NCBI GenBank assembly: GCA_963826525.1 | Contig: CAWGXH010000004.1 | Coordinates: forward strand, 1,408,001 to 1,472,000 | Length of the DNA: 64,000 bases | Direction of reading: 5' to 3' | Origin: an uncultured Methanomicrobiaceae archaeon | GTDB taxonomy: Archaea > Halobacteriota > Methanomicrobia > Methanomicrobiales > Methanoculleaceae | In this document: positions 8,119-53,930 of the stretch, one piece after another | How the letters are laid out: the number at the start of each line of letters is the position of its first letter | How positions within the stretch are numbered: position 1 is the first letter of the stretch | Program-made: the position numbers and the translations under genes | Notes under the pieces: model-generated | Seen by the model: only the letters and a program-made list of their open reading frames with translations | The model's database searches: none | Told to the model about the DNA's origin: nothing

Positions 8119-8822
8119 TCAAGAGATAATACGCTTCGCCACCTTTGCATATTCGGCCATAACGTCCCCTTTGTCAAACCGGTATACATCCTTGTCCATC
8201 GACTGCCGGGTCTCCTTATCCCAGAGCCGCATCGAGTCCATGCTGATCTCGTCACCGAGATAGATGACGCCGTCCCGGTGTCCGAACTCCATCTTGAAGT
8301 CGACAAGGGTGATGCCGCGTGCATCGAGGTGGTCTTTGAGCAGCTCGTTGATCGTCAGTGCATTCTCCTTGATCTGGTCGAGTTCTTCCCGGGTGGCGAT
8401 ACGGAGAGCCAGGATCAGGTCATCGTTGAGCATCGGGTCGTGCCGGGAATCATCTTTATAGTCGATCACGATCACGGGCGGGTCAAGGGGAGCTCCCTCG
8501 GTGAAGGGATACCGCCGCACAATGGAGCCGGCCGCAACGTTCCGGACGATGACTTCGAGCGGGATCATCTCAAGGTCCCGGACGACCATCGTGATCGGAT
8601 CGATCATGCCGAGGAAATGGGTCTTAATGCCGCGCTCCTCCAGGTACCGGAAGAAGAATGCGGAGACTTCGGCATTATATCGACCTTTTCCCCCAGTACG
8701 TCTTTCTTCCCGCCGTCAAACGCCGTGATGTCGTCCCGGAACTGCATGATCAGGTTACCCTGTTCGTCCGATCGGTAGACGGATTTTGCCTTGCCCTGAT
8801 ACATAAGGTCAAGCTGCTTCAT
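8119..8822 (-). CDS. purC: SAICAR synthase (one-base deletion near 8684, probably a sequencing error)
   Basis: YQGKAKSVY...FRDDITAFDG in one frame; IPLEVIVRNVAAGS, LVDFKMEFG, DEISMDSMRLWD in the next. Confidence 0.92.
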
Positions 8823-8853: not shown

Positions 8854-9861
8854 TTATAGAATGATATTATGGTTCGCCGCCACGCTCGAAGGCATCAAGA
8901 CGGGCAGAAGCTTGTCCACCAGCGGCCTGAGCGCCGGGGATACCCACCCTTTCCCGATGAACCGGGGATAGATGCAGAGGCGCTCTTTCAGGACGGCGTC
9001 ACCCGCTACCCGGCGGAGTTCGTCTATCTGCGGCCAGGGGTGCTCCGGGTTGACGTAGTCGATGGTGAGGGGGGATACCCCGCCGAGGTCGTCCACGCCG
9101 CAGCCGATGAGGCGAGAAGCGTCGGCGAGGTTCGGGGGGATCTGCACCGCTACCTCCGGCGGGAGGATCTCCCGTGCAAGCGCGATGGTGGTGCAGAGTT
9201 CCTCGCTGCCCGGTACGCGGGCATGCTCCATCGGCGTCCCGACTTTCGGGCAGAAGTTCTGGACGATGACCTCCTGGATATGGTCGTAGCGCCGGTGGAG
9301 GTCCCGGATCACCCGGAGCGACTCTTCACGGTCGTCTTCGGTCTCGCCGATCCCGATGAGGATGCCGGTGGTGAACGGAATCCGAAGTTTCCCGGCATTC
9401 TCCATCATCTCGATGCGCACCGCCGGATCTTTTCCGGGCGATGCGGCATGCGCCGGAACGTCGGCCGTCGTCTCGAGCATCAGCCCCATGCTGGCGTTGA
9501 CCTCTGCCAGTCGCTCGAGCTCCGCGTATGACAGAATTCCGGCGTTGGTGTGCGGCAGCAGTCCCGCATCGATGCTCGCCCGGCAAAGGTCGTAGCAGTA
9601 GTCGAGGATATCGGTATACCCGAGGAGTGCGAGCCGTTCGGAGAACCCCGGAACTTTTCCCGGCCGCTCGCCGAACGTGAAAAGCGCCTCCGTGCACCCG
9701 AGGGCGGATCCACGCTCCAGTGTGGCGATGACCTCGCCCGGCTGCATGATGCATCCGTCCCCGACCGGTGTCTGAAAACAGCAGTAACTGCACCGGTTGA
9801 AGCAGACGCTCGTCAGTGGGAGGAACACGTTCTTCGAGAAGGTGATCTGCCGGTGGTGCAT
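8854..9861 (-). CDS. cofG: FO synthase subunit CofG (radical SAM)
   Basis: ITFSKNVFLPLT, CFNRCSYC, LLPHTNAG, SMGLMLE, FTTGILIGIGE, DLGGVSP, NPEHPWP. Confidence 0.93.
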   Translation of the reverse strand: MHHRQITFSKNVFLPLTSVCFNRCSYCCFQTPVGDGCIMQPGEVIATLERGSALGCTEALFTFGERPGKVPGFSERLALLGYTDILDYCYDLCRASIDAGLLPHTNAGILSYAELERLAEVNASMGLMLETTADVPAHAASPGKDPAVRIEMMENAGKLRIPFTTGILIGIGETEDDREESLRVIRDLHRRYDHIQEVIVQNFCPKVGTPMEHARVPGSEELCTTIALAREILPPEVAVQIPPNLADASRLIGCGVDDLGGVSPLTIDYVNPEHPWPQIDELRRVAGDAVLKERLCIYPRFIGKGWVSPALRPLVDKLLPVLMPSSVAANHNIIL

Positions 9862-10046
9862 GGTAGTACTTCGGCATATTTCCTCTTCAACCTTCGGACA
9901 GGCGGAGCAGCGTCCCGCGCCGCTCTTCCGCGCGACGCCCGCGGGCAGAAGTGCATCCGGGAATACACGGAGGGTTTTGCGTATCTCCGGTGTCGGTGCC
10001 GTATGGAGCGATGCCTTTTTGTTGATTACCCGACAACCGGATTTCA

Positions 10047-10688
10047 ATGTATTTTCATGCTCTCATCCCCTTCAAACCGGTCAACCCCAAGACACGACTC
10101 TCCTGCGTTCTCAGCCAGGAGGAGCGAGAGGCGTTCGCAAGGGCGATGCTCGACGATGTCATCGCCGCCGTGCTGAAATCCGGGTGCAGTGCAACGCTCC
10201 TCTGCACGAGTGCCTTCGAGCGTGACGACGCTTTGGTCGCCGTTCGCAAAGAACCACTCAACGAGGCTATCAACTGGGCGCTCGACCAGTTCCACTGCCC
10301 GGCGCTCATCATCATGTCCGATCTCCCGCTTGTCCGGGCAGGCGATATCCAGCGTCTCGTATCGACCGGGAAGGATATGGCCATCGTGCCGGGAAGGGGC
10401 GGGGGCACGAATGCGATCTTCTTAAAAAAGCCCCGCTGTTTCCACGCTGACTTCTACGGGGCGAGTTTCCTCGACCACATGCGGATCGCTGAGGAATGCG
10501 GGTTCACCGTGGATATCATCGATTCGTTCCGGATGTCGACGGATATGGATGAACGGGAGGATCTCGTGGAGATTCTCATCCACGGAAAAGGGAAGAGCAG
10601 GGAGTATCTAGAGGGGCTCGGTTTTTCCCTCTCGATCGAGAAGGGCAGGGTTAGCGTGAAGCGCAGTCCCCATGAAGAGACACTCTGA
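10047..10688 (+). CDS. cofC: 2-phospho-L-lactate guanylyltransferase
   Basis: ALIPFK, KTRLS, MSDLPL, GRGGGTN, DMDEREDL. Confidence 0.92.
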   Translation: MYFHALIPFKPVNPKTRLSCVLSQEEREAFARAMLDDVIAAVLKSGCSATLLCTSAFERDDALVAVRKEPLNEAINWALDQFHCPALIIMSDLPLVRAGDIQRLVSTGKDMAIVPGRGGGTNAIFLKKPRCFHADFYGASFLDHMRIAEECGFTVDIIDSFRMSTDMDEREDLVEILIHGKGKSREYLEGLGFSLSIEKGRVSVKRSPHEETL

Positions 10689-11420
10689 AGCATCGATCGT
10701 CGCTATCCCTGAATAGTCACCGATGGGGAGACCTGATCCGCGGACGACTGCGGCAGGGGCGCACTCATCCGCCTCTCCCATGACGAGTTCCGCCGCGGAT
10801 GCGATGCAGTCGGCGACGGCGCGCTTCGTGACGTGCAGTTCCCTGCCGAAGAGATCGGTTCTGCCGCACTCGTCGATCACCGACGGGAGTCCCGAGCACC
10901 CGATGGCGACACCGCTCGATCCGAGGCGCATCGCGTGTGTCCGACTGTCGGCCACGATGACTCCCGTATCGGCGCCGCACCGCTCCCGGATTCCTTCGCG
11001 TATCCTCGCCGCGCTCCGGTCGGAGTCGGCGGGGAGAAGGACGACCGAGCCTGGGGGGGCGTTCGATGCATCAATTCCTGCATTCGGGAGGAGCGTTCCG
11101 TTCTTCAGGCAGAGCAGGAATCCGTCGACTCCCCCGACCACCTTCTCGCTCTCGGAGAGGACGATCTCTGCGAGGCGGGGATCCATCCGGTGCCGTTCAC
11201 CGAGGACTTCTGCAAGTTCCGACGGCACTATCGAATCGAGACTGACGATCCTTCCCTCTGCTGTGGCGACCGGCGACTCGGCGACGACGATGATATCGCC
11301 GTCACGGAAGGCGCCGCACCCGGCATCACCGGACGCAGCGATGAGGTGGCCGACGATATCGTCGCCGGGATGTATGAGGCCGGTCTTGAGGCCGTATACG
11401 CAAAATGCATTATCTTTCAT
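10608..11420 (-). CDS. cofE: CofE-family (COG1478) gamma-glutamyl ligase
   Basis: IHPGDD, GDIIVVAES, NAGIDASN, DLFGREL, MGEADE; start overlaps the folP stop. Confidence 0.85.
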   Translation of the reverse strand: MKDNAFCVYGLKTGLIHPGDDIVGHLIAASGDAGCGAFRDGDIIVVAESPVATAEGRIVSLDSIVPSELAEVLGERHRMDPRLAEIVLSESEKVVGGVDGFLLCLKNGTLLPNAGIDASNAPPGSVVLLPADSDRSAARIREGIRERCGADTGVIVADSRTHAMRLGSSGVAIGCSGLPSVIDECGRTDLFGRELHVTKRAVADCIASAAELVMGEADECAPAAVVRGSGLPIGDYSGIATIDASECLFMGTALHANPALLDREGKTEPL

Positions 11421-12226
11421 GGTTTCATCATCTTCCGGTGCACGGCGAGCAGGTCTGCGGTCTCGGCGACGTCGTGAGACCTGACCACTGCCGCTCCGCG
11501 CTCGACAAGCATCATGGTGAGAGCGAGGGTGCCGGCGAGCCGCTCTTCGGGAGGTTTTCCGAGCAGATCCCCGAGGAGCGATTTTCGTGAGACCGCAGCA
11601 AGGAGCGGGCGCTCGAACGCAGAGAACTCGTGAAAGTGTCTGCAGAGTTCCCAGTCCTCCTCGCTTCCCCGCTCCGGAGTCCACCTCCCGACGCCGGGGT
11701 CGAGGACGAACTCCTCGATCCCGTACTCCTCGCAACGGCCGATGACCGCTATGAGCGCCTGCATGGTGGCGTCGAGGCCGACCGCGTCGCCGGGCCTGGA
11801 AAAACTCGCCATGGCGAAGACGGGGAGCCCTGAGTCGGCTGCAATCGCCGCATATTCCCTGTCTGCAAGCCCGCCGATATCGTTGATCGCGTGGATCTCG
11901 TGCTGTAAGCAGACGCGAAGCACCTCCGGGTGCATCGTGTCGACCGAGATGGCAAGACCACTCCCGTCGAGCTCGCCGAGTGCCGAATCGATCCGTTCCG
12001 CCTCTCCGGCCACGGTCAGGGGCGGCGAGCCGGGTGCGGTGCTTCGGGCGCCGATGTCGATCAGATCCGCCCCGCGGTCGTGCATGGAAAGAGCCCTGGC
12101 GCGAACCTCCTGTGCGGCAGTATACGATCCGCGGAAAAATGATTCGGGGCTGCAGTTGATCACGCCCATGAGGCGGACGGGGGCGCCGCCGCCTATCGGG
12201 ATCTGATTTACAGAACAGAGATGCAT
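11417..12226 (-). CDS. folP: dihydropteroate synthase
   Basis: [52 protein letters not shown]. Confidence 0.9.
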
Positions 12227-13053
12227 GCCTTCCGCTCTGCAGCCTTGAAGGTCTGCTCCATGAGCGTTGCGATCGTCATCGGGCCGACGCCGCCCGGCAC
12301 CGGGGTGATGGCGCCTGCTCGATCCTGCACGGCTTCAAAGTCCACATCGCCGCAGAGCTTGCCGTTCTCGTCGTAGTTGATCCCGACGTCGATGACCGTT
12401 GCCCCTTCTTTCACCATCTCCGGTCCGACGAACCGTGCTTTTCCGACGGCACTGACGAGGATGTCGGCAGAACGCATCTCGTCTGCAAGGTTCCGGGTTT
12501 TGCTGTGGCAGATGGTCACCGTTGCGTCGGCGTTGAGGAGGAGGGCCGCCATCGGGCGGCCGACGTCGATGCTCCGCCCGACGACGACTGCGCGCTTCCC
12601 GGCGGTCTCGATCCCGTATTCGGCGAGGATGGTCATGATCCCCTGCGGGGTGCAGGGGGCATAGACGGGAGTTCCGGCGAGGAGGCGTCCGAGGTTATAG
12701 GGGTGGAATCCGTCGACATCCTTCTCCGGCGAGACCGCTTCGATCACGCGGGTGGTGTCGATCTGCTTCGGGAGGGGGAGCTGCACCAGGATGCCGTTGA
12801 TGTCGGGGTCGGCATTGAGGCGGGCGACCGTCTCGAGCACCCGCTCGGTGGTGGCGTCCTCGGGCAGTTCGATCCCGATGGATCCGATCCCCACCCGTTC
12901 GCAGGCCCGGTGCTTCATCCGGACGTAGAGCTTCGATCCGGGGTCTTCGCCGACGATGACGGTTGCGAGGCGGGGGTAGAGCCCGGACTCCTCGATCCGC
13001 TCCTTGAGTATCTCGAGCCTCTTCTCAGAGACTTTCTTGCCGTCGAGGATCAT
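12208..13053 (-). CDS. folD: methylenetetrahydrofolate dehydrogenase/cyclohydrolase
   Basis: [34 protein letters not shown]. Confidence 0.96.
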
Positions 13054-14322
13054 ATCATTTCAGGATACAGGGGATACCTGCTTGCGAGGGCCGTGACTTC
13101 CGCCTTCACTTCGCCGATGGCCTTCTTTGAAGTCTTGTCCCGTGCGATGTCTTTGAGGACGCGGGCGATCCAGTATGCGATCTGCTTCATCTCCGCTTCT
13201 TTCATGCCGCGCGAGGTCACTGCCGGCGTTCCGACCCGGAGGCCGCTCGTGACGAAGGGGCTGAGCTGTTCGCGGGGGATGGTATTCTTGTTGACGGTGA
13301 TACCTGCTTCGCCGAGGGCGTTCTCAGCCGCAAGCCCGGTCAGGTGATCCCCGTTCGTGGAGAGGCCCGTCAGGTCGAGGAGGATCAGGTGGTTGTCGGT
13401 GCCGCCGGAGACGATATCGAGCCCTTCCTCGGCAAGAACCTCTGCCATCACTTTAGCGTTCCTGACGACCTGGCCGCAGTAGTCCTTGAACGACGGGTGC
13501 AAGGCCTCCTTGAAGCAGACTGCCTTTGCCGCGATGATGTGCATCAGCGGGCCGCCCTGCATACCCGGGAAGACTGATTTGTCGATGGCGGGAGCGTCCT
13601 CTTTTCTGCACATGATGGCACCGCCGCGAGGCCCGCGGAGGGTCTTATGCGTTGTGGTCGTCACGAAGTCGACCACGCCGACCGGTGAATTGTGGTATCC
13701 GGTTGCGCAGAGGCCCGCGATGTGGGCGATGTCGGCCATACAGTATGCATCGACGGAATCGGCGATCTCCTGGAATGCCTTGAAATCAATCTCCCGCGGG
13801 TAGGCGCTCGCGCCGCAGACGATCATGGCTGGCTTGACGATCCGCGCCATCGCTTCGAGGTTTGCGTAGTCGAGTGTCTCGGTCTCGGGATCGACACCGT
13901 ACTGGAAGATCGAGTAACCACTTGCCGCTGATATTGACGGGTGAACCGTGGGAGAGGTGGCCGCCCTGTGAGAGGCTCTGGCTCATTATCCTGTCCTTGT
14001 AGTTCAGGTATGCAAAGTATACTGCCTGGTTTGCCTGGCTCCCGGAGTGGGGCTGCACATTGGCGTGCTCTGCTCCGAAGAGTTTACACAGCCTGTCGCG
14101 CGCCAGATTTTCCACGACATCGTGAAACTCGCAACCGCCGTAGTATCGCTTGCCGGGGTACCCCTCCGCATATTTATTGGTCATTATTGACCCCATTGCC
14201 TCAAGGACGTTCTTACTGACGACGTTTTCGGAGGCAATAAGCTCCAATCCATTGAGCTGACGCAGACGCTCGCACTCGATGAGATCTGCAACTTCTGGAT
14301 CGAATTCAGCCAGACTAGACAT
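13050..14322 (-). CDS. glyA: serine hydroxymethyltransferase, bacterial type (one-base insertion near 13918)
   Basis: [31 protein letters not shown], then [26 protein letters not shown] in a shifted frame. Confidence 0.94.
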
Positions 14323-14422
14323 GTAAAAAAAGGTTGCCTTGAAGAGGTAATAGTCTTTCTTCCCCGGATTCAAATGAAATATTAATACGTTATCACCATC
14401 AAGGTTAATTTCGAGGGAAATA

Positions 14423-20204: not shown

Positions 20205-21673
<1,469 letters not shown>

Positions 21674-21744
21674 ATGACATTTCTTGGGTCTAAGCATGCG
21701 GTTGCTAAACAAAACGTAGAATTGCCGATGTCAACGGATATCTA

Positions 21745-21817
21745 GGGCTCATAGCTCAGTTGGAAGAGCGCGGCGTTTGCAACGCCGAGGCCGGGGGTTC
21801 AAATCCCCCTGAGTCCA
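21745..21817 (+). tRNA. tRNA-Ala(TGC)
   Basis: GGGCTCA/TGAGTCC acceptor with G3-U70, anticodon loop TT TGC AA, GTTCAAATC; in the 16S-23S spacer. Confidence 0.97.
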
Positions 21818-21890
21818 CTGTCAATGCACCCGGGAATGTGAGTCCCCGGGGAAGGGCTGAAGGTCTTTTGACCTGACGAAGCCGTGTATA

Positions 21891-21919
21891 GGTGTGTACT
21901 CTGGACGTTAAATGAGTTC
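21891..21919 (+). other. 5' arm of the 23S processing stem with canonical bulge-helix-bulge, pairs with 24843-24871
   Basis: CTGGA-CGTT-AAA-TGAGTTC pairs with GAACTCA-GACG-AAA-TCCAG: 4-bp helix with two 3-nt bulges. Confidence 0.85.
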
Positions 21920-21926
21920 AGCGGAA

Positions 21927-24836
<2,910 letters not shown>

Positions 24837-24937
24837 TCCGCCGAACTCAGACGAAATCCAGAGTGCACACCAAACCGTTCAGCAGACAAAGGGTTTATAC
24901 CCGATGAACGCATGAACCTACCAAATACACACGGCTT

Positions 24938-25009
24938 GCCAAGGTGGCGGAGCGGCTACGCGGTTGACTGCAGATCAGCTACACCCCGGTTCAAGTCCGG
25001 GCCTTGGCT
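24938..25009 (+). tRNA. tRNA-Cys(GCA)
   Basis: GCCAAGG/CCTTGGC acceptor, U discriminator, anticodon loop CT GCA GA, GGTTCAAGTCC. Confidence 0.96.
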
Positions 25010-25011
25010 TT

Positions 25012-25138
25012 GGTAATAGCGGCCATAGCAGTGGGGAAACACCTGGACCCATTCCGAACCCAGCAGTGAAGCCCACTCACGTATCATGTTGTACTGAGGT
25101 ACGCGAGTCCTCGGGAAGCATGATTCGCTGCTATTACC
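25012..25138 (+). rRNA. rrf: 5S rRNA (ends approximate)
   Basis: GGTAATAGCGGC/GCTGCTATTACC terminal helix; CCCATTCCGAACCC. Confidence 0.96.
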
Positions 25139-27842: not shown

Positions 27843-27945
27843 TCCGGAAGTCCTATTGTCACTCTATTGATGTATTGTTGGCCTATATTTGGATATATTC
27901 TCATTCGAGAACTGATATATCTCTCTCCTGCCCATGCTTTTGTGC

Positions 27946-28820
27946 ATGAAACTTTCATCTCCACCTCGTAACGCTGGTGCGGCGCTGAGCGCGCTCGCTA
28001 TTCTTGTGATCGCTGCAACGCTCTTTGCCGGGTGTACCGGAACCGGCACCGAGCAGCAGCAGACTGCAGAACCGCAGACGATCTCGGTGACGGGATCGAC
28101 GACCGTGCTTCCCATCGCACAGGCCGCAGCGGATGCCTATATGAGCAAGGACTCCCTGGCCGACATTCAGGTCAGCGGTGGTGGGTCAGGCGTCGGTGTT
28201 CAGGCTGTCGGTGAAGGCACCGCCGATATCGGCATGTCCTCCCGCGATGTGAAGGCCGCCGAGAAAGAGAAGTACCCGAACCTTGTAGAGCAGGTCGTTG
28301 CCATCGACGGCATCGCCGTGATCGTCAACCCGAGCAACCAGGTCGCCAGCCTGACGCTCGACCAGGTGAGAGGCATCTACAACGGCACCTACACGAACTG
28401 GAATGCAGTCGGCGGCTCCGCCGGCGAGATTGTCGTCATCGGCCGTGACAGTGCTTCCGGCACCCGTGAATACTTCTCCGAATCGGTCATGCAGACGGAA
28501 GACTTCGTCCAGACACCAGCTCGAGAAGAACTCGAACGGTGCAGTGCAGCAGACCGATCGCCCAGACCCCCGGTGCCGTCGGGTATGTCGGTATCGGATA
28601 CCTTGACGCGACCGTGAAGGGTGTCCCGCTTGTGGTGAACGGCAAGACCGTGGCACCGACCCTCGAGACCGTCAAGAGCAATGAGTACCCGGTTTCCCGG
28701 TCGCTGTATATGCTCACGGTGGGCGAGCCGACCGGTCTTGCAAAGGATTACATCGACTTCATCCTCAGTGATGAAGGCCAGGCAATCGTTGAAGAGGAAG
28801 GATTCGTTCGCATCGACTGA
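27946..28820 (+). CDS. pstS: phosphate ABC transporter substrate-binding lipoprotein (insertions near 28515 and 28556)
   Basis: Lipobox LFAGC; GSTTVLP, GGGSGVG, DIGMSSR, RDSASGTR, YPVSRSLY; no pstCAB adjacent. Confidence 0.9.
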
Positions 28821-52534: not shown

Positions 52535-53177
52535 ATGACGTTCTTGGTAGCGTACAAAGCAGAAGATTTCACGGTTTCTGAAGACGTTCTTCAGGAAGCG
52601 CTCCTCCCGCATTGGCATCTACGGTCCGCCCAATGCCGGTAAGACGACGCTTGCCAACAGGATCGTGCGGGACTGGACCGGGGATGCTGTCGGGCCGGTC
52701 AGCGAAGTCCCTCACGAAACACGCCGCGTCCGCAGGAAGGAGAATATTACCATTACCGGCACCAACGGGAACTCCGTCACGATCGATATCGTCGATACGC
52801 CCGGGGTGACGACGAAGATCGACTATAACGAGTTCCTTGAATACGGCCTCGAGAAAGACGACGCGGTCAAGCGGGCGCGGGAGGCGACCGAAGGGGTTGC
52901 CGAGGCAATGCACTGGCTTCGGGAGGATATCGACGGCGTGATCTATATGCTCGACTCGACGCAGGATCCGTTCATGCAGGTCAATATCATGATGGTCGGT
53001 ATCATCGAGAGCAGGAAACTCCCCGTCATCATCGTTGCCAACAAAAACGATCTTCCCGATGCATCGGCAGCCCGGATCAAGAGCGCGTTCCCCCAGCACC
53101 CCGTCATCTCGATATCGGGTCTCGAAGGGAACAATGTGAATGATCTGTACGAGAAGATGACGGGCTACTTCGGGTGA
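52535..53177 (+). CDS. oapA: Era-like GTP-binding protein (OapA-like; insertion near 52548)
   Basis: IGIYGPPNAGKTT (upstream of the tracked ORF, same frame), HETRR, DTPG, ANKND. Confidence 0.85.
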
Positions 53178-53545
53178 TGGAAATGATACAGGGTGTACAG
53201 ATTGACCTGATCTCTGCAGAACGTCTCGACCGGCTGACGCCGATGGAGAAGATCCGACTGATCCTCGACGATGTCATGGAGGGCAACATCGTCGTCCTTG
53301 AGCGCGGTCTTGCTCCCGACGAGCAGAGCAAACTTATCGAGGTGACGATGCGGGAGATCACGCCGGACGGGTTCTCAGGCATTGAGATGGAGACATATCC
53401 CCTCAAGGAAGCGGGTGGATTTTTCGCCCGGCTTCTCGGCGGGAGTAAGAGCGAGAGTCGCCTGACCGTCATCGGGCCGGCAAATCAGCTGAAGATGCTG
53501 AAGAAGGAGAAGGATCTCATCAGCGCGTGGGTCTCCTCAAGGTGA
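53177..53545 (+). CDS. oapB: DUF2073-family protein (OapB-like)
   Basis: MEKIRLILD, LIEVTM, FSGIEMETYP, LTVIGPAN; follows the GTPase. Confidence 0.8.
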   Translation: MEMIQGVQIDLISAERLDRLTPMEKIRLILDDVMEGNIVVLERGLAPDEQSKLIEVTMREITPDGFSGIEMETYPLKEAGGFFARLLGGSKSESRLTVIGPANQLKMLKKEKDLISAWVSSR

Positions 53546-53552
53546 GTGCGGG

Positions 53553-53930
53553 ATGCCTCACAAGTGCACGCAATGCGGCAGGGAGTTTGAGGACGGTTCG
53601 ACGAAGATCCTGAAGGGATGTCCGAGCTGCGGCGGGAAGAAGTTCCTCTACATCCGCGAGGCGCACCGGCACGATGATGTGCTCGAGGAGAAGACCATCG
53701 AGGAGATTGCCGGGGATACCGGAGTGGATGTTCTCGAGGTGAAGCCTGCCGGCACCTCGCGGAACGTTGAGATCTACGATCGTGTCGAGAGCATCCGGGT
53801 TCTCGGTCCGGGCTCGTATGAACTGAATATCGAGAAGATGGCGCAGAGCGACGAGGTCGTTGTTCGTCTCGACCGTGAGGGGAAGTATATGGTGGACATC
53901 CTCTCGATGTCGAAGAAGAAGAAGGAATAG
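53553..53930 (+). CDS. oapC: Zn-ribbon protein (DUF2072/OapC-like)
   Basis: MPHKCTQCG, GCPSCGGKKF, ESIRVLGPGSYELN. Confidence 0.8.
   Translation: MPHKCTQCGREFEDGSTKILKGCPSCGGKKFLYIREAHRHDDVLEEKTIEEIAGDTGVDVLEVKPAGTSRNVEIYDRVESIRVLGPGSYELNIEKMAQSDEVVVRLDREGKYMVDILSMSKKKKE

Follow-up and report, generated by a model that had tools for sequence, protein, structure and literature searches.

The genome of an uncultured Methanomicrobiaceae archaeon (assembly GCA_963826525.1) encodes, immediately behind a gene for a folate enzyme, a protein of the CofE family, whose canonical members are γ-glutamyl ligases of coenzyme F420, and the locus thereby raises the question of which cofactor this protein serves. 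The window, by which we mean the whole 64,000-nt stretch of contig CAWGXH010000004.1 that was analysed, carries on its minus strand glyA, folD, folP and the CofE-family gene (hereinafter designated cofE2, and its product CofE2). Adjacent genes overlap by 4 nt (glyA/folD, 13050-13053), 19 nt (folD/folP, 12208-12226) and 4 nt (folP/cofE2, 11417-11420), and the folP stop codon and the cofE2 start codon share the sequence ATGA. We consider it probable, from comparison of sequences, that CofE2 is a FolC2-like dihydropteroate/folate γ-glutamyl ligase. A preliminary description of the locus had reported the four minus-strand genes with overlapping stop and start codons, the convergent cofC with cofG beyond it in a separate unit, and the motif DSRTHAMRLG in the CofE-family protein; the table of open reading frames (ORFs), the family scans, the coordinates and the translation agree with all three. 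It had proposed a folate ligase or a dual folate/F420 ligase, and had pointed, among other things, to four matters that bear on that proposal: whether the genome holds a second cofE, whether it holds a folC, whether the protein groups with canonical F420-0 ligases, and whether folP and cofE stay together in relatives.

The genome holds two PF01996 genes, the window copy and a canonical CofE on contig C5, so cofE2 is not the sole cofE. The C5 protein (251 aa, motif DTCGRAFRRG) passes both TIGR01916 and the strict CofE model NF009809 (290.7 against a cut-off of 274), and shares 39% identity with CofE2, which remains below the strict model at 204.6. The PF01996 match of CofE2 covers the entire profile (positions 1-218 of 218), its family hits are of the PF01996 type with none to the FolC model TIGR01499 or to the Mur ligase middle domain, and a look-up in the ESM Atlas returned PF01996 clusters only. 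Two copies are the rule in the order Methanomicrobiales, with at least two PF01996 matches in 144 of 151 sampled genomes, the remaining seven being 62-88% complete. The F420 ligase of this organism is accordingly more likely the canonical C5 protein than the product of the gene at 10608-11420.

The deepest division of the family tree separates the two copies. We built a tree of 187 rows, comprising 143 of the 150 best representatives at 50% identity (seven shorter than 200 aa were omitted), both copies of this genome, four named relatives and 38 proteins from genomes of the phylum; the fusion proteins of loci L084 and L085 stand outside the trees. The tree separates 83 canonical from 104 non-canonical rows (FastTree, Shimodaira-Hasegawa (SH)-like support 94), with CofE2 among the latter. 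The canonical side carries D-[ST]-x-G-R-x-[FW]-R in 80 of its 83 rows, S or N replacing G in the other three, and the non-canonical side is characterized by D-S-[RH]-x-x-P-[LM]-R. In an 85-row tree built without the motif columns, this split has an ultrafast bootstrap of 100 and an SH approximate likelihood ratio test value of 100, and CofE2 does not group with the canonical F420-0 ligases. The two copies of 11 other genomes that are represented in the tree by both (G281, G211, G277, G155, G175, G197, G191, G151, G180, G225 and G253) are likewise placed on opposite sides, and an approximately unbiased test rejects a single clade of all copies from the phylum (delta lnL 162, p 1.4e-5), a group that was named after the tree had been seen. 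Because of the split, the opposite placement of paired copies and this test, the window gene is, as judged from sequence, either an ancient paralogue or an acquisition and no recent duplicate of cofE. Named members of the non-canonical side come from Methanomicrobiales, Hadesarchaea, Heimdall-, Thor- and other Asgard archaea, Methanomethylicota and Nitrososphaeria.

CofE2 retains the fold and the catalytic scaffold of CofE and has lost the contacts to the F420 chromophore. Its AlphaFold model (predicted local distance difference test 94.5) aligns in Foldseek with Archaeoglobus fulgidus CofE (7uld/2phn) at E 5e-26, with a template modelling (TM) score of 0.78-0.87 and a root-mean-square deviation of 1.8-2.3 Å; the two proteins are 37-41% identical (E 3.4e-40 by sequence). 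Residues D42, N113-A114-G115, D117, N120, D158, R165, D189, D204, G215 and P222 are retained in both classes, and D42, N113, D117, N120, D158, R165, D189 and D204 among them would form the metal-, nucleotide- and glutamate-binding scaffold, by analogy with CofE structures. In the A. fulgidus enzyme, the F420 chromophore is reported to sit between F92, the G153-C155 stretch and, contributed by the partner chain, R234 (PMC10861534). We mapped these positions onto CofE2 through the PDB-chain alignment and the family alignment. G153, which is Gly in 96% of canonical members, corresponds to T161 of CofE2 and is variable in the non-canonical class (Thr in 42%); R154, Arg in 100% of canonical members, corresponds to H162 and is also variable in the non-canonical class; and R234, Arg in 77% of canonical members, corresponds to I242, with Ile in 48% of the non-canonical class. 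At position 155 (Cys in A. fulgidus CofE) the non-canonical class has a near-fixed Pro (87%), replaced by Ala in this order (A163 in CofE2), and F92 aligns with G100. The non-canonical class further has Gly at the position of window residue 96 (95%) and Cys at that of residue 247 (88%), C247 lying within a C-terminal stretch that is absent from canonical members. It is likely that CofE2 has kept the chemistry of CofE and changed the acceptor.

The partner to which the gene is tied is folP. Of 80 related Methanomicrobiales loci (Methanoculleus, Methanoregula, Methanolinea, Methanospirillum, Methanogenium and their relatives), 79 have the end of folP at most 60 nt from the CofE2 start, a gene order far beyond chance; in the eightieth the sequence upstream of the match is limited to 156 nt and is too short to tell. 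The arrangement also recurs in other families of the phylum, where folP is adjacent in 9 of 20 loci and within 3-6 kb in 6, with two further loci at 10-14 kb by coordinates. Gene orders verified there are glyA-folD-folP-metV-metF-thiC family-cofE2 (family f7), ThiC-PurH-folP-ligase, and folP followed by a ligase fused to a cytidine deaminase. The answer to the question of gene order in relatives is thus strongly positive. Fusion to a dihydropteroate synthase (DHPS) domain is seen in one non-canonical member, P0146 (555 aa), and canonical-side members are fused to CofC, to an F420-dependent oxidoreductase or to a nitroreductase. The FolP of the window itself matches bacterial DHPS structures at E 2.5e-35 and retains the SRKS stretch.

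The presence of the gene also follows that of DHPS where FolC is missing. A search for FolC (TIGR01499) drew a blank in this genome (87.6% complete), in which no Mur ligase middle domain scores above cut-off either, and none of the 26 genomes sampled from the order, which are listed at 97-99% complete, yielded a FolC. Among 161 sampled genomes of the phylum, a CofE2-type copy was called in 62 of the 63 with DHPS and without FolC, in none of the 28 with FolC, and in one of the 70 without a DHPS over cut-off, the call being motif-checked in 20 genomes and resting elsewhere on an E-value of 1e-49 or better together with a second match. In the 28 genomes that have it, FolC is mostly encoded in one frame of 800-980 aa with DHPS. 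The sampled genomes are kin, and these counts represent few independent events. Within a single family (f8), 3 of the 4 genomes with DHPS carry the copy and none of the 22 without DHPS does, a contrast that speaks against a role in F420 or methanopterin synthesis. The control genome of Methanosarcina acetivorans yielded DHPS, methylenetetrahydrofolate reductase (MTHFR), PurN and PF01996 matches, and no FolC. In addition to the genes of the window, the genome of the uncultured archaeon itself holds a gene of the ThyA type, PurN and MptE, which is the archaeal pterin kinase.

The single DHPS-less genome with a CofE2-type copy has this copy as its sole PF01996 match (locus L083, G260:C60); it adjoins folD-glyA, and folP was not detected. 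The family of that genome is otherwise without DHPS and has canonical CofE only, and the locus may reflect gene transfer or a mis-binned contig.

As a dihydropteroate/folate ligase, CofE2 would add L-glutamate to the 7,8-dihydropteroate made by the FolP encoded just upstream and may add further γ-glutamates, standing in for FolC in a small tetrahydrofolate pathway used by GlyA, FolD, PurN and ThyA. By analogy with solved CofE structures, it would be dimeric and bind two divalent metal ions, and GTP would activate the carboxylate of the substrate to an acyl phosphate, which would then be attacked by the amino group of a glutamate held in the conserved pocket.

Besides the two limits on the co-occurrence counts given above, several points weigh against this assignment. 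The functional reading rests wholly on comparative genomics. The pathway retains a hole, as searches of the genome turned up neither a DHFR_1 family gene nor one for MTHFR, and the claim of the preliminary description that cofE2 completes the folate pathway does not hold in that form. CofE2 scores far below the chlamydial FolC2 model TIGR04132 (87.5 bits against 350), and 16 non-canonical representatives score only somewhat higher on it (84-143 bits) than 12 canonical ones (63-103 bits), which is a lean toward FolC2 and no match. Chlamydia trachomatis CT611, MJ0768 and AF2256 are themselves outside the tree, in which G181 (DTNGRCFRRG, a near-identical motif) stands in for AF2256 and MJ0768. 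The DHPS fusion is a single protein on a single 4.4-kb contig, and a search of longer proteins returned 11 fusions (to CofC, F420-oxidoreductase, nitroreductase and EAL) and none with DHPS. The link to folP, finally, holds for the clade of this phylum and does not extend to the non-canonical class as a whole: folP, folD and glyA lie within 4 kb of the ligase gene in 0 of 80 metagenome loci of a Nitrososphaeria-like subclade, found with a 9-row alignment of that subclade, the 51-row non-canonical alignment being too diverse. In 19 of these loci, with 74 neighbouring genes, gcvT, which like thyX is folate-dependent, stands beside the ligase gene in 3 and thyX in 1, and F420 genes stand beside it in none of the 19. 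The loci concerned are L139, L168, L173 and L193, and gcvH accompanies gcvT in two of the three gcvT loci (L139 and L168).

The remaining adverse points are those that would make CofE2 a second F420 γ-glutamyl ligase, lengthening or starting the F420 tail beside the canonical CofE. CofE2 exceeds the TIGR01916 CofE cut-off (216.4 against 180.65); it has the CofE fold at the identity to the A. fulgidus enzyme given above; database names for its 120 best relatives are without exception F420 ligase or an F420-related term, all sources agreeing in this naming; and cofC is convergent and adjacent to the CofE2 gene in 40 of 80 Methanomicrobiales loci (and present anywhere in 60 of 80), with cofG next to cofC. 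We nevertheless regard this function as unlikely. The chromophore contacts lost from CofE2 are 96-100% conserved in canonical members, the gene is missing from 69 of 70 sampled DHPS-less genomes that bear an F420 ligase and from all 28 with FolC, and Methanoregula-type loci and other families have lost the adjacency to cofC, whereas the linkage to folP persists. Carriers of the gene are found, moreover, on both sides of a difference in F420 tail length: among Methanomicrobiales, which lack cytochromes and have short tails, and among families whose Methanosarcinaceae-type gene order marks them as probable relatives of Methanosarcina, which have long ones. Tails of 2-3 glutamates are reported in methanogens without cytochromes and of 4-5 in those with cytochromes (PMC8498797). 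The same observations bear on the dual role proposed in the preliminary description: given a canonical CofE there is no need for a dual enzyme, and the replacement of the G153, R154 and R234 contacts makes one unlikely. That proposal as a whole is partly supported, its F420 part being unlikely.

CofE2 might instead glutamylate a methanopterin-type cofactor or another carboxylate and not a pteroate, a reading to which we give the same low standing as to a second F420 ligase. Candidates would be the glutamyl residues of sarcinapterin or tatiopterin. Glutamylated derivatives of methanopterin are reported from Methanomicrobiales and from relatives of Methanosarcina, the lineages that carry the gene; the pocket, moreover, differs from that of CofE. 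Against this, the gene tracks DHPS in family f8, is translationally coupled to folP and not to methanopterin genes, and has a relative fused to DHPS. Methanocaldococcus jannaschii, used as a control, has no TIGR01496 DHPS though it makes a methanopterin-type cofactor, and the glutamate of its sarcinapterin is added by the ATP-grasp enzyme MptN. Least probable of all, and in our judgement very improbable, is a reversed order in which CofE2 makes p-aminobenzoyl-glutamate from p-aminobenzoic acid and FolP condenses the product with pterin diphosphate to dihydrofolate, which predicts the same genomic pattern and could draw on a FolP loop that reads STAPG instead of the bacterial STRPG, such that the arylamine site may differ, but is opposed by the position of the ligase gene 3' of folP in every locus seen and by the report that CT611 replaces FolC in Escherichia coli, whose DHPS makes dihydropteroate (PMC1971073).

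The glyA gene at the head of the unit is broken in the assembly by a one-base insertion. At the break the nearest named relative has GGCAAGTGGTACTCG and the window has GGCAAGTGGTTACTCG; the N-terminal part of the gene covers positions 1-132 of the serine hydroxymethyltransferase profile and the C-terminal part positions 165-399. The gene reads through in 63 of 67 related loci that span it entirely. We read the break as most likely an assembly error on sequence grounds, because purC and a PBP_like_2 phosphate-binding protein gene in the window and purN elsewhere on the same contig are similarly split by one-base frameshifts and the genome is only 87.6% complete despite its 16 contigs; the four split genes and the low completeness point to an indel-prone assembly. 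Among public sequencing runs, none matched more than 0.10 of the sampled sequence words, and no RNA run was among the matches listed. True pseudogenisation of folate genes, which the damage to both glyA and purN might suggest, was set aside, as purC and the phosphate-binding protein gene are broken alike. A TAC codon adjoins both the glyA and the purN insertion.

Coordinates of these and other features are collected in Table 1. An AT-rich element upstream of glyA (TATTAATATTT) is a possible candidate for the archaeal TATA element of the four-gene unit. The cofE2 and cofC genes overlap tail to tail by 81 nt (10608-10688), and related Methanoculleus-type loci show a comparable overlap of the convergent genes, there of about 65 nt. 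In other families of the phylum, a ThiC-family radical S-adenosylmethionine gene (PF01964) lies in the tetrahydrofolate cluster directly 5' of the ligase gene or of purH, and a ThiC gene also adjoins the ligase gene in metagenome locus L178. FolP proteins of those families are 411-420 aa long, their pterin-binding domain ending near residue 257, and carry a C-terminal extension of about 150 aa without a Pfam match that is missing from the window FolP. The C-terminus of the ligase is fused to a cytidine/deoxycytidylate deaminase in family f23, with open frames of about 396-419 aa in 6 of 6 sampled genomes, a fusion that possibly links the ligase to pyrimidine or thymidylate supply. Farther along the window, a 6-kb ORF-free stretch of lower GC content is explained by a complete archaeal rRNA operon, and the OapB and OapC genes suggest that a replication origin is nearby.

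Table 1 Coordinates of features in the window and, where a contig or locus is named, outside it.
Feature	Position	Strand	Basis
glyA, serine hydroxymethyltransferase (PF00464), two frames in assembly	14322..13050	minus	ORF table and family scan
One-base insertion breaking glyA (TT; T in relatives)	13916..13917	minus	Sequence comparison
folD, methylenetetrahydrofolate dehydrogenase/cyclohydrolase	13053..12208	minus	PF02882, PF00763; NF010775 536.5 bits against cut-off 465
folP, dihydropteroate synthase, 269 aa	12226..11417	minus	PF00809 1.4e-42; TIGR01496 193.3 against 162.6
cofE2, CofE-family paralogue, 270 aa from ATG at 11420	11420..10608	minus	PF01996 E 1.8e-75
Motif DSRTHAMRLG, CofE2 residues 158-167	10920..10949	minus	Translation; aligns to DTNGRCFRRG of A. 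fulgidus CofE
cofC, convergent with cofE2	10047..10688	plus	PF01983 5.7e-48; TIGR03552 169.2 against 105
cofG, divergent from cofC	9864..8854	minus	TIGR03550 431.2 bits
AT-rich element, 55-65 nt 5' of glyA ATG	14377..14387	minus	Spotted by eye
purC, split by one-base frameshift	8119-8822		
PBP_like_2 phosphate-binding protein gene, split by one-base frameshift	27934-28820		
One-base frameshift splitting purN	C4:1251921-1251934		
rRNA operon, complete	20205-25136	plus	
16S rRNA	20205-21672	plus	
tRNA	21745-21817	plus	
23S rRNA	21921-24842	plus	
tRNA	24938-25009	plus	
5S rRNA	25015-25136	plus	
OapB and OapC genes	53174-53930		PF09846, PF09845
ThiC-family genes	L089:6025-7272; L093:10397-11644		PF01964 501-519 bits
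ThiC-family gene	L091:6117-7388		ORF read by eye
folP with C-terminal extension	L089:3195-4430; L093:8202-9446; L101:6251-7513		
Ligase-deaminase fusion	L101:7515-8681; L084, L085, L102; protein P0123		

Enzymes specific for tetrahydrofolate are reported in Methanosarcina, and PurN-bearing archaea, Methanomicrobiales included, are expected to hold tetrahydrofolates (both PMC3261824 and PMC9012536). Our full-text literature search, which did not extend to de Crecy-Lagard 2012 or to Buchenau and Thauer 2004, returned no gene assigned to folate glutamylation in these methanogens, and folate is not mentioned in the passages of the F420 review that we drew on; a folate role of the archaeal paralogue may already be noted in those two papers or in curated subsystems. 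If CofE2 is a dihydropteroate/folate ligase, it fills the glutamate-adding gap in the small folate pathway of methanogens, a systematic mis-annotation as F420 ligase is corrected, and D-S-[RH]-x-x-P-[LM]-R versus D-[ST]-x-G-R-x-[FW]-R becomes a signature that tells the two functions apart. A wider extension, which we advance tentatively and regard as doubtful, holds that the non-canonical half of PF01996 (104 of 187 rows) is the main archaeal route of folate glutamylation, an ancient family of GTP-dependent dihydrofolate/folylpolyglutamate synthases, related to chlamydial FolC2, that takes the place of FolC in the majority of archaea without it. Were it true, the name 'coenzyme F420-0:L-glutamate ligase' would be mistaken in thousands of database entries, and reliance on cofE matches would over-count F420 capacity.

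CofE2 shares its fold and its metal, nucleotide and glutamate scaffold with canonical CofE (A. fulgidus AF2256, PDB 2PHN/2G9I/7ULD; M. jannaschii MJ0768). It differs from canonical CofE in lying across the deepest split of the tree, in failing NF009809, in the replacement of G153, R154 and R234 by T, H and I and in the stretch that contains C247, and it is linked to folP instead of cofD or CofC fusions. The genes around it are those of the tetrahydrofolate cluster of Methanosarcinaceae and ANME-2 archaea, which comprises metF, metV, folP, folD and glyA as well as purN (PMC9012536, citing Buchenau and Thauer 2004); the passages of that account describing the cluster do not mention a CofE-family gene. 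Unlike that cluster, the window is reduced to glyA-folD-folP-cofE2, in a genome in which MTHFR was not found.

With FolC, a Mur ligase family enzyme (TIGR01499), CofE2 would have in common the ligation of L-glutamate to dihydropteroate and folates. The folds of the two are unrelated, CofE is reported to use GTP (PMC1971073) whereas enzymes of the FolC family bind ATP (PMC10861534), and FolC and a CofE2-type gene never occur together among the 161 sampled genomes. Closest in proposed function is chlamydial FolC2 (TIGR04132, 'intra_fol_E_lig'). CT611 of C. trachomatis, a COG1478 protein encoded in a folate cluster, is reported to make good the loss of folC in an E. coli mutant (PMC1971073, PMC4161248). 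CofE2 differs from it in falling outside the TIGR04132 equivalog and in its host, which has cofC, cofG and a canonical cofE, whereas chlamydiae are described in the passages used of PMC1971073 as being without other cof genes. Both proteins belong to PF01996/COG1478, both are encoded within a folate cluster in a host that has folP and in which FolC was not found, and, by analogy, both would perform the same function.

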